This document shows, in pieces, positions 4,172-7,611 of a stretch of DNA of 8,657 nt. Every line of letters starts with the position of its first letter. The first letter of the stretch is position 1. The stretch lies in the IMG/VR virus record IMGVR_UViG_2778261299_000009. The stretch is one strand, 5' to 3'. Under the pieces are notes generated by a model that worked only from the letters and a program-made list of their open reading frames with translations, was not told the DNA's origin and made no database searches. Position numbers and translations under genes: made by a program. The stretch comes from a virus. Taxonomy: Duplodnaviria > Heunggongvirae > Uroviricota > Caudoviricetes.

Positions 4172-5137
4172 TTATCCTCTGAAACCAGGCGGAATTTCTG
4201 TATCCGGTTCAGAAATATGATTAACACAACGCTGTACAGGTGAACGTCCCAGGCGGATGACCAGTTCGTCCCATTTTTCGCGGAGCTTTGACGGGCTCAT
4301 GATGTTTTTTACCCAGAATGGATCTCGCTGAACCCGACCAAACATTTCGCAAATTTGTCTGTGGCTTCTGCCATCCAGCATCCGCATTGTGCGCACGTCA
4401 TTGGCCCAGGCAGTCCAGTTAGGCTCTTTTGGTCGCATGATCTCGCCATCATCACTGGCTGCCTGTTCGTAGAGACCCACGATCCGCCCCCAGATCCACT
4501 GCGCACACGCCAAATCCTCCCTGCTACCCCACTGGCGTTTTTTCGCACTAAACACAACCGCGTCGGAGTTCCGGGTTAAAAAATCCTGTTCAGTCGTCTG
4601 CGGGTCCGGTTGCGAAGCTTCCGGACGAAAAGTGTTTTTATTCTCTGTAGTAATCTCTGTTGTATTCTCTGTAAGATCATCAGGCCATTTTGACCCGATG
4701 ACATTGGGTCGTTTTGAACCAATGGAGCGTTTCATTTTGACCTCTTCCATCGTGTCATTTTGACCTGATGGAGCGGCGCATTTTGAACCGATGGATTCGC
4801 TCAATTTGCCACCATCTAAAAGCTCGCTCCCATAGTTGATCGTGTAGAAATTGGTCATATCGCGCTTTGATTTATTGAGCTTTTCACAACGCAAAAGCCC
4901 CAGCGTTTTCAGACTTGCAAACGCGCGCTTTAACGTTGACTCTGACCAGAATGGGAACTGTTCCAGCCATTGTTCCGTTGTGTTATAAATCCAGCGAACA
5001 CCATCACATTCCATGCCGGAGTTGGTATCTCTCAACCAGTAGTGCAGTTGTTGCAAAACAATGGCTTCGTTTAAGCCAATTTTCATTGCCAGCTGCGTGT
5101 TTATAACCAGTGGGCGTTCAGCAAAAAGAAGGCTCAT
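4172..5137 (-). CDS. Phage replication initiator, lambda-O-like (replisome organiser)
   Basis: N-terminus MSLLFAERPLVINTQLAMKIGLNEAIVLQQLHYWL is typical of phage replication-initiator N-terminal domains. The middle of the gene encodes a repeated SIGSK peptide produced by the iteron array. I placed the start at ATG 5137; the track's start at 5191 is a TTG. Confidence 0.8.
   Translation of the reverse strand: MSLLFAERPLVINTQLAMKIGLNEAIVLQQLHYWLRDTNSGMECDGVRWIYNTTEQWLEQFPFWSESTLKRAFASLKTLGLLRCEKLNKSKRDMTNFYTINYGSELLDGGKLSESIGSKCAAPSGQNDTMEEVKMKRSIGSKRPNVIGSKWPDDLTENTTEITTENKNTFRPEASQPDPQTTEQDFLTRNSDAVVFSAKKRQWGSREDLACAQWIWGRIVGLYEQAASDDGEIMRPKEPNWTAWANDVRTMRMLDGRSHRQICEMFGRVQRDPFWVKNIMSPSKLREKWDELVIRLGRSPVQRCVNHISEPDTEIPPGFRG
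4642..4672. repeat. Three direct TCTCTGT repeats at 12-bp spacing next to the iterons
   Basis: TCTCTGT at 4642-4648, 4654-4660 and 4666-4672. Confidence 0.35.
4686..4816. repeat. Iteron array (5-6 direct repeats, about 23-bp period) inside the replication initiator gene; putative phage origin
   Basis: CATTTTGAC/ACC-N-GATGG units starting near 4686, 4710, 4733, 4756 and 4779, plus a degenerate unit near 4803; the spacing is about two helical turns. Confidence 0.6.
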
Positions 5138-6825: not shown

Positions 6826-7044
6826 ATGCAGAAACGAGAACCCGTCATCATCGCGCCAGACTATACCGATGATGAACTTTATGAGTGGATGCGCCAGAAA
6901 ATTAATGCAGCGCAGGATCTGAAATGGGCTAATGAAGCCAGGGCTAAGCAGGCTGAAAATCTGTCCGCTCTGGAGCAGGATATCACCAATCTGGAAAAAG
7001 CAGCGGCATTAAGCATTGCCAGAATGATTACATACCCGCGTTAG
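6826..7044 (+). CDS. ydfC: YdfC-like protein (72 aa)
   Basis: ATG at 6826 preceded by GAGGAA; the product has a coiled-coil-like C-terminus. Confidence 0.8.
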   Translation: MQKREPVIIAPDYTDDELYEWMRQKINAAQDLKWANEARAKQAENLSALEQDITNLEKAAALSIARMITYPR

Positions 7045-7384
7045 TAGCTAATCAACAAAGCTAAGGTTAGTAATTAAGGAGTTCTCCACGGGTGAGGTGG
7101 AGTGCGTGCGCCGGACACGGGTGCGCATCCGGAACTGACAGTTTACTGAAAGGATATTTCCCTGAAAAGTCAGACCATAACGCGAAAGCGCACGGCGAGG
7201 TAGCTGGTTCATAGATAGCCTGTCGTTAAATTTTCGTCGACCGTGCGCTTCCGGTTGTGGCAACCCGCGAAATGGCGCGGCGGTAAGTATGGCGGGGTTA
7301 TTCCTTCCCCGTTGAGGACACCGGGTTGTCAGGTTGACCATACGCTTAAGTGACAACCCCGCTGCAACGCCCTCTGTTATCAAT

Positions 7385-7442
7385 TTTCTGGTGACGTTTG
7401 GCGGTATCAGTTTTACTCCGTGACTGCTCTGCCGCCCTTTTT
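7385..7442 (+). ncRNA. dicF: DicF small RNA (ftsZ-targeting sRNA of Qin-type prophages)
   Basis: TTTCTGGTGACGTTTGGCGGTATCAGTTTTACTCCGTGACTGCTCTGCCGCCCTTTTT matches DicF as I recall it, and it lies between ydfC and dicB as in K-12. GGCGG/CCGCC stem plus a T-run at the 3' end. Confidence 0.7.
7399..7442 (+). terminator. Intrinsic terminator-like 3' end of DicF
   Basis: GC stem GGCGG (7400-7404) pairing with CCGCC (7432-7436), followed by TTTTT (7438-7442). Confidence 0.45.
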
Positions 7443-7611
7443 AAAGTGAATTTTGTGATGTGGTGAATGCGGCTGAGCGCACGCGGAACAGTTAAAACCA
7501 AAAACAGTGTTATGGGTGGATTCTCTGTATCCGGCGTTAATTGTTAACTGGTTAACGTCACCTGGAGGCACCAGGCACTGCATCACAAAATTCATTGTTG
7601 AGGACGCGATA

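Follow-up and report, generated by a model that had tools for sequence, protein, structure and literature searches.

A covarying, pseudoknotted RNA domain directly upstream of DicF recurs in lambdoid prophages and P1 and may control transcription elongation

DicF was one of the first bacterial small RNAs (sRNAs) to be described, and its operon is still actively studied. A 190-nt DicF species has its 5' end set by RNase III and runs to the DicF terminator; RNase E shortens it to the 53-nt DicF (Ragunathan et al. 2023, citing Faubladier 1990). The 190-nt species is reported to be stable and to accumulate in stationary phase, to become more abundant on RNase E inactivation and to be absent without RNase III (Ragunathan et al. 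2023; Faubladier 1990). MicL and CpxQ are, like DicF, cut from a longer mRNA by RNase E just past a structured segment. For MicL, Updegrove and colleagues reportedly found that an upstream stem-loop directs precise RNase E processing.

Structured leader RNAs also act on transcription elongation. The put RNA of HK022 is the precedent for a leader that makes RNA polymerase terminator-resistant, and consists of two stem-loops with a triplex, about 70 nt in all; put RNAs suppress termination in cis, need no protein factors and depend on the beta' zinc-binding domain of the polymerase. EAR is another pseudoknotted or triplex leader RNA associated with terminator-resistant RNA polymerase. Antitermination of the lambda nut and rrn types uses a boxA motif (NusB/NusE); nut combines it with a 15-nt boxB hairpin and the phage's N gene, and the lambda N leader has an RNase III site near nutL. 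Here we compare these systems with the DNA that separates ydfC from dicF in the Qin prophage.

The window, the whole stretch of DNA analysed, is 8,657 nt long (IMG/VR record IMGVR_UViG_2778261299_000009) and corresponds to the immunity and early-left region of the E. coli Qin prophage, including the dicBF operon, with the Qin gene order dicC, dicA, ydfA, ydfB, ydfC, dicF, dicB, ydfD. Rfam RF00039 places DicF on the + strand, positions 7386-7437, with 76.7 bits where the gathering score is 48; this 52-nt model covers DicF proper only, and the ydfC-dicF spacer lies outside it. As ydfC ends at 7044, the spacer runs from 7045 to 7385 (341 bp). A sequence-only reading had described it as GC-rich, rich in stems and free of credible open reading frames (ORFs), and had suggested that its stems help to process or stabilize DicF and that it could hold a second stable RNA. 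We resolved the spacer and DicF into the following features.

7045-7182, + strand: 5' part of the ydfC-dicF spacer, non-coding, with local hairpins in the minimum free energy (MFE) and centroid folds, for example 7103-7127
7183-7253, + strand: long hairpin with arms 7183-7198 and 7237-7253, 16 bp and one bulge
7243-7252, + strand: boxA-like motif directly 5' of the conserved domain, degenerate here and reading GTGCGCTTCC
7254-7368, + strand: conserved pseudoknotted RNA domain of ~115 nt, with five helices and a loop-to-junction pseudoknot
7254-7261 with 7361-7368, + strand: helix P1
7265-7269 with 7276-7280, + strand: helix P2
7282-7284 with 7320-7322, + strand: helix P2a
7282-7284 with 7344-7346, + strand: extension of the pseudoknot proposed by RNAalifold, alternative to P2a
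7287-7292 (GUAUGG) with 7338-7343 (CCAUAC, in the P4 loop), + strand: pseudoknot
7293-7297 with 7307-7311, + strand: helix P3, a variable hairpin, usually with a pyrimidine-rich UCCU loop
7323-7331 with 7351-7359, + strand: helix P4, the perfect stem GGGTTGTCA/TGACAACCC with a 19-nt loop
7369-7385, + strand: linker, A/U-rich and single-stranded, 41% GC
7386-7442, + strand: DicF sRNA with its intrinsic terminator and U-tract (Rfam RF00039, 76.7 bits)

The spacer has a GC content of 52.8% and the core domain 58.3%, so that 'GC-rich' holds relative to the window (46.1%) and in no other sense. The absence of a credible ORF was borne out. Most of 53 Qin-type homologues interrupt the 40-aa + strand ORF (7092-7214) with an in-frame stop, and in a 54-aa ORF on the - strand the variable columns at codon positions 1, 2 and 3 number 21, 26 and 29, without third-position bias; on these two grounds we rejected a protein-coding spacer. 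The - strand ORF is sometimes annotated as hypothetical in RefSeq genomes. No tRNA or tmRNA was found. An Rfam 15 scan of 6950-7520 with permissive filters and E values up to 10 returned DicF and one chance match downstream of it (E = 6), and a known RNA family for the spacer was rejected because DicF alone was recovered, at the gathering threshold as well as at E up to 10.

Taken by itself, this sequence gives modest evidence of structure. Both perfect stems singled out earlier, GGGTTGTCA/TGACAACCC with its 19-nt loop and GCGCACGG/CCGTGCGC (7188-7195 with 7241-7248), are present as described. Folding of the single sequence gives z = -3.0 for the + strand and -2.6 for the - strand; among dinucleotide shuffles, 6% contain a perfect stem of 9 bp or longer and 3% contain two or more that reach 8 bp. 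A proposed CGC-GAAA-GCG hairpin does occur, at 7181-7190, and finds no support as an element of its own: it reuses GCG 7188-7190, which the larger GCGCACGG/CCGTGCGC hairpin also needs, so the two are mutually exclusive.

The GCGCACGG/CCGTGCGC stem is the core of the 16-bp hairpin 7183-7198/7237-7253, within a 13-nt inverted repeat (7183-7195/7241-7253), and the fold of 7160-7260 has a z-score of -3.8. Counting 190 nt back from the DicF 3' end (7438-7442) leads to 7249-7253, inside the 3' arm of this hairpin, and from the published length we infer an RNase III cut at about 7248/7249. The hairpin is a probable RNase III substrate because it spans that point, placing a long double-stranded stem over the cleavage position. 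Its arms are invariant in the 53 Qin-type homologues, and covariation therefore speaks neither for nor against it. The 190-nt species would thus run from ~7249 to 7438 and comprise the conserved domain plus DicF; it is the same RNA as the 190-nt DicF precursor, processed from the dicBF mRNA, of Faubladier (1990) and Ragunathan et al. (2023). The start of the DicF model and the RNase E dependence in the literature place the cut that yields the DicF 5' end at 7385/7386, in the 7369-7385 linker, with part of the DicF seed paired to the linker in the single-sequence MFE fold. A weak similarity between 7181-7197 and 7266-7282 was rejected as an internal duplication because 35 of 500 shuffles scored as high. 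Deletion variants apparently join at this repeat.

Two of the earlier suggestions can be judged against this background. The stems had been cast as processing determinants for DicF, and for the GCGCACGG/CCGTGCGC hairpin, which spans the published RNase III cut, that description fits; the P4 stem is instead part of a wider domain. A role in DicF maturation only is too narrow for that domain, because it occurs in phages without ydfC, in P1 and in two relatives without a nearby DicF-like sRNA or terminator. The suggested second stable RNA is half borne out: it corresponds to the domain-plus-DicF species, which was already known and is reported as stable in stationary phase.

Comparison with other phages separates two parts of the spacer. 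The 5' part (7045-7182) is conserved among Qin-type prophages only (53 homologues), and BLAST showed that just the 3' third of the spacer is common to phages otherwise unrelated there, namely cdtI, Stx2c phages, Ayreon, P1, P7 and a phage labelled Actinobacillus; cdtI, P1 and other relatives share with the Qin spacer its 3' part alone. Pattern scans yielded 282 loci and from these 125 distinct sequences, all retrieved with patterns containing GGTTGACCAT. Across the 125 sequences CAGGTTGACCAT is invariant, as is the P4 loop GGUUGACCAUACGCUUAAG, which provides the 3' strand of the pseudoknot; this invariance is partly built in, because every sequence was collected with GGTTGACCAT-containing patterns.

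The conserved fold at 7254-7368 is real. Folding with homologues, which the sequence-only reading had put forward as its check, gave strong covariation for P4 and its surroundings, with 15-19 of the 36 pairs changed on both sides against 6-8 in shuffles, counted over 100-125 distinct homologues. In the MAFFT alignment the figure was 15 of 36 (shuffles 6.1 ± 1.6, none of 500 reaching it; slid controls 4-8 pairs). In the model-fitted alignment, which is biased towards the covariance model by construction, it was 19 of 36 (7.6 ± 1.7 shuffled, again 0/500), and slid controls over both alignments gave at most 10 pairs. P4 has compensatory changes in six of its nine pairs, such as GGGTAACCA/TGGTTACCC and GGATCACCA/TGGTGATCC, and in some members P3 and P4 are wholly rewritten with pairing kept (CAGGTG/CACCTG in P3, GGATCACCA/TGGTGATCC in P4). 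The pseudoknot itself covaries, GUAUGG:CCAUAC being replaced by GCAUGG:CCAUGC in P1 and one lambdoid member, and RNAalifold recovers this helix independently on the unfitted alignment. The abundance of G-U pairs identifies the + strand as the RNA; the covariance model matches the window on that strand only (177.6 bits) and finds exactly one copy in each of 100 loci. An alternative helix (7258-7267 with 7322-7331) is pairable in 91% of sequences, and we rejected it as a switch because its covariation does not exceed that of shuffles.

The domain is a mobile, self-contained RNA family of temperate phages of Enterobacterales. Of 5,426 complete E. coli genomes 4,326 contain it, with as many as eight copies in one genome, and P1-like plasmids carry it too; Rfam has no entry for it, and no annotation of it was found. 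The 510 plasmid matches fall almost entirely on non-mobilisable replicons of about 90-100 kb, which we read as P1-like phage-plasmids. A genome scan with a relaxed two-block pattern gave true matches in Enterobacterales only, and a wider taxonomic range was rejected because the matches elsewhere were due to chance.

Its genomic position is strict. In every lambdoid member the domain is encoded downstream of a cI/DicA-type repressor gene, on that gene's strand, where the early-left operon begins. It stands directly after a PL-like promoter and leader in cdtI, Ayreon, the Actinobacillus-labelled phage, and Erwinia and Izhakiella prophages, follows ydfABC downstream of the repressor gene in Qin and Tritos, and is also present in phages without ydfC; in P1 the C1-controlled Pban promoter lies about 30-40 nt ahead of its start. 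There is one copy per locus (100 loci), always on the PL or Pban side, and a second copy analogous to putR was rejected because each locus gave one match and the PR side gave none.

A terminator usually follows. Among 31 representatives sharing less than 90% identity, 29 have a hairpin and T-run downstream, 27 of them within 36-118 nt, and this terminator usually belongs to a DicF-type scaffold with differing 5' seed sequences; in the window the DicF terminator itself lies directly downstream of the domain. The terminator of P1 is a strong one, with a stem of 8 bp, a UUCG loop and six U, and it separates Pban from the tRNA, tci and ban genes. Tritos, a complete phage, has dicB, exonuclease VIII, xis and int on the far side of the DicF terminator. 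Two relatives keep the domain without a nearby DicF-like sRNA: one (L177) has no terminator within 230 nt of the domain, and in the other (L159) the nearest is at 159 nt. The genes downstream are heterogeneous and include dicB/kil, RdgC-like and YfdQ-like genes, tRNAs and ban.

Most lambdoid relatives carry, 1-5 nt upstream of the structured RNA, a motif that we call boxA-like from its resemblance to known boxA elements. It reads GTGCTCTCTT, ATGCTCTTTC or GCGCTCTTTT, compared with TGCTCTTTA in rrn boxA and CGCTCTTA in lambda, and GTGC-CT is at least 90% conserved in 125 sequences whose further-upstream DNA differs. Against the boxA consensus YGCTCTTTA, TGCTCTCTT, TGCTCTTTC and CGCTCTTTT in relatives have 6-8 of nine matches and TGCGCTTCC in the window has six. 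P1-type members have no clear boxA match and no clear P1 helix. In the window the motif forms the 3' arm of the RNase III hairpin, and a cut there would sever it from the domain.

Among described systems, put is close in arrangement. In HK022 and HK639 it is, like the domain, a structured RNA just downstream of a repressor-controlled early promoter and ahead of terminators; these phages are lambdoid and lack an N protein, a point in which we liken the domain-bearing phages to them, and the putL-like element of HK639 is annotated as 126 nt, near the size of the domain. The two differ in architecture, put having two stems and the domain, at 115 nt, five helices and a loop-to-junction pseudoknot, and also in number, put occurring downstream of both PL and PR and the domain once, on the PL side (or after Pban). 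Searches of the HK022 genome and the HK639 putL-like region with nhmmer and the covariance model gave nothing significant; the model aligned the boxA-like flank to a CGCTCTTTC-plus-hairpin site in HK022. Membership of the put family was rejected because sequence and structure do not match, the architecture differs and a PR copy is lacking.

A point of resemblance to the nut and rrn boxA systems is the boxA-like motif of the relatives, just upstream of a structured RNA at the start of the PL operon, and the lambda N leader has in common with the domain leader a nearby RNase III site. In contrast to nut, the domain operons have no boxB-like hairpin and no recognisable N. A PHROGs search with YdfA, YdfB, YdfC, DicB and orf39 returned families of unknown function only, and none of these proteins begins with an arginine-rich stretch. 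The left operons examined contained no protein recognisable as N-like, which is weak evidence because N proteins are poorly conserved.

On the side of sRNA maturation, the guides of MicL and CpxQ are simple one-gene hairpins, whereas the domain is a complex pseudoknot with near-invariant loops, found in phages with differing sRNA seeds. The accessible papers on DicF regard this segment as part of a long untranslated region and as a processing intermediate; in none of them did we find the fold, its covariation or its occurrence in P1 and other phages described. A 'dicF-like region' annotated in P1 (NC_005856 68791-68892) overlaps P4, the sRNA-like segment and the terminator; this annotation records sequence similarity only, leaves out the domain's 5' half and proposes neither a structure nor a role. 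In the DicF, put and ban literature other than Faubladier and Bouché (1994) and Łobocka (2004) we found no description of the fold, and the 7254-7368 domain apparently had not been described before.

We tentatively read the domain as a cis-acting elongation-control (antitermination) leader, comparable to nut and put and belonging to neither family, at somewhat under an even chance. This reading is based on the position at the operon head, the adjacent terminator, the boxA-like flank, the lack of N and a complex fold with conserved loops. The folded nascent domain would act in cis on the RNA polymerase transcribing it, as lambda nut or HK022 put does, and Nus factors recruited by the adjacent boxA-like motif may cooperate with it. 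Some elongation complexes would then become Rho-resistant over the long untranslated region and pass the DicF terminator into dicB, ydfD, the exonuclease gene, xis and int, unmodified complexes would terminate and yield DicF, and one leader could in this way set the ratio of sRNA to downstream early proteins. Counting for elongation control are the nutL/putL-like position (after a cI/DicA-like repressor gene, or after Pban in P1), the terminator downstream in 29 of 31 representatives, and the two relatives that keep the domain with neither sRNA nor terminator nearby.

Several observations count against elongation control. HK022 needs both putL and putR, and the domain has a single PL-side copy; it is unlike put in sequence and structure; the boxA-like motif of the window is degenerate and hidden within the RNase III hairpin; and neither a clear boxA nor a clear P1 helix is seen in the P1-type members. 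Left-operon genes are dispensable for lytic growth, and strong termination there could be tolerated, which also counts against it. Northern blots of uninduced K-12 mainly show species ending at the DicF terminator, with no long ydfABC-dicFB band (Ragunathan et al. 2023), so antitermination in Qin would have to be partial, or its products quickly processed.

The main rival places the domain in sRNA maturation, as the structured 5' body of a pro-sRNA whose fold resists RNase E, directs it to the downstream A/U-rich stretch, fixes the 5' end of the seed and controls the rate of DicF release; the 5' end of this pro-sRNA would be defined just upstream, by RNase III or, in P1, by the promoter itself. 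We consider this explanation somewhat unlikely, even though much agrees with it: the known 190-nt species equals the domain plus DicF and is reported to behave accordingly in stationary phase and towards RNase E and RNase III, the terminator that follows the domain in 29 of 31 representatives mostly belongs to a DicF-type scaffold, domain and sRNA apparently move together into unrelated phage backgrounds including P1, the MFE fold pairs part of the DicF seed with the linker, and the upstream stem-loop of MicL is a precedent for guided RNase E processing. A barrier to RNase E, however, needs no five helices, pseudoknot and highly conserved loops, and maturation leaves unexplained both the boxA-like flank and the two members without a nearby sRNA; the seeds vary so widely that no conserved pairing between seed and domain exists. 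The same RNA might instead act in trans: the ~137-nt piece that RNase III and RNase E together release, or the 175-190-nt RNA as a whole, would bind a host or phage protein or another RNA. Initiation at the promoter in P1 and RNase III cleavage in Qin are two routes to a discrete RNA of much the same size that carries the domain close to its 5' end, the near-invariant loops, whose invariance comes partly from the search patterns, suggest specific macromolecular recognition, and the 190-nt RNA is reported as stable. We nevertheless judge action in trans improbable, as no 137-nt species is reported (published probes target DicF), no partner is known, and the strict placement at the operon head next to a terminator goes unexplained.

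A compact pseudoknot whose junction and loop nucleotides are highly conserved, placed immediately before an intrinsic terminator, could also be a riboswitch-type aptamer that senses a small molecule or ion and controls the terminator hairpin. Transcriptional riboswitches, however, are a poor model here: the linker between domain and terminator varies from 12 to 45 nt, mutually exclusive pairing is not conserved (covariation of 7258-7267 with 7322-7331 is at background), the heterogeneous downstream genes share no metabolic theme and no Rfam riboswitch family matches, and we hold this explanation to be very improbable. That the stems are by-products of composition or recent prophage ancestry, without function at the RNA level, we regard as scarcely credible. 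The modest single-sequence statistics, the more than 90% identity of most homologues and the RNase III hairpin's lack of covariation would be in keeping with such an origin; against it stand many independent compensatory changes, including full replacement of P3 and P4 with pairing kept, the sharing of the domain by lambdoid phages and P1 despite unrelated flanks, and the strand-specific signal with its G-U pairs.

Carried further, the elongation-control reading would make the domain a new class of phage cis-acting RNA that gives E. coli RNA polymerase resistance to termination, structurally unrelated to put and possibly assisted by Nus factors and boxA, and that forms with an Hfq-type sRNA a cassette for a choice between terminating and reading through. 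We offer this more specific proposal with greater reserve. About 80% of complete E. coli genomes carry the domain-sRNA cassette, as do P1-like phage-plasmids.

The RNase III hairpin and the 190-nt RNA were already known, and the 7254-7368 domain is apparently new: a covarying, pseudoknotted RNA directly before DicF, very common in E. coli and unannotated. If it turns out to be a pro-sRNA domain, it would be a remarkably elaborate signal for maturation. If it does control elongation, it would explain how lambdoid phages without N, and the ban operon of P1, pass a strong promoter-proximal terminator, and how the balance between DicF and the toxic DicB is set in cells.

Downstream of the pseudoknotted RNA domain (7254-7368), the position occupied in the window by DicF (7386-7442, + strand) carries at least half a dozen distinct 5' seeds among homologous loci that bear the domain (L005, L190, L169, L032, L170, L003 and others), and the terminator scaffold that carries these varied seeds, TTTGGCGG...CCGCCCTTTTT, is similar from one relative to the next. 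Judged from these sequences, the arrangement looks like a swappable sRNA cassette placed after a constant leader domain. Features of the window discussed alongside it are as follows:

7443-7475, immediately 3' of the DicF terminator: post-terminator block, AAAGTGAATTTTGTGATG(C/T)GGTGAATGCGG
7048-7212, - strand, opposite the spacer between ydfC and DicF: 54-aa hypothetical protein WP_001331716.1, annotated by RefSeq in some genomes (2504-2668 in L002, one of the compared loci)
1763-1934, - strand: sok antitoxin RNA (Rfam RF01794), full-length match, 104 bits

The post-terminator block is found at the same position in L190, L127, L169, L004 and other relatives, and is kept even where their sRNA seed and hairpin differ. 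It may be related to the RNase III cut that, according to the literature, generates the 3' end of the 72-nt DicF species. L004 (PP818812.1, 'Actinobacillus phage vB_Apl-pPE4') and E. coli prophages have the block in identical form, and in L004 the domain is surrounded by DicA, YdaT, Kil and exonuclease VIII. This region resembles an E. coli-type lambdoid phage; the host assignment may be doubtful, or the likeness to E. coli prophages may reflect recent transfer.

Upstream of the domain, deletion variants equivalent to window positions 7181-7282 were found in L013, L229, L050 and L266, which include viral and genomic contigs. At their junction, the upstream copy CGCGAAAGCGCACGGCG (7181-7197) is fused to a partial repeat, CGCGAAATGGCGCGGCG (7266-7282), so that the RNase III hairpin loses its 3' arm and helix P1 its 5' strand, and the boxA-like motif is gone; taken alone, the similarity between the two repeats is weak. 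Part of the domain's covariance model, namely its 5' flank and helix P1, aligned weakly (E = 0.09) to HK022 (29104-29157, + strand), where the aligned stretch, CACGCTCTTTCTGTTGAAC…GTTCAAC, consists of a boxA-like sequence and then a hairpin.

No coding signature was detected in the substitution pattern of the WP_001331716.1 ORF, and the annotation is therefore probably spurious. The RF01794 match marks a hok/sok-type toxin-antitoxin locus in the window, away from the spacer.

The terminator hairpin is larger in prophages of Erwinia, Izhakiella, Trabulsiella and Serratia symbiotica (L278, at ~4680-4760, L282, L273, L262 and L134), and its loop (…AGGAGAGCGAAGATAATGTTCTACCG…) contains an ATG as well as a Shine-Dalgarno sequence, so a short ORF may start inside the terminator in these prophages. 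If it does, translation-coupled control would be possible.
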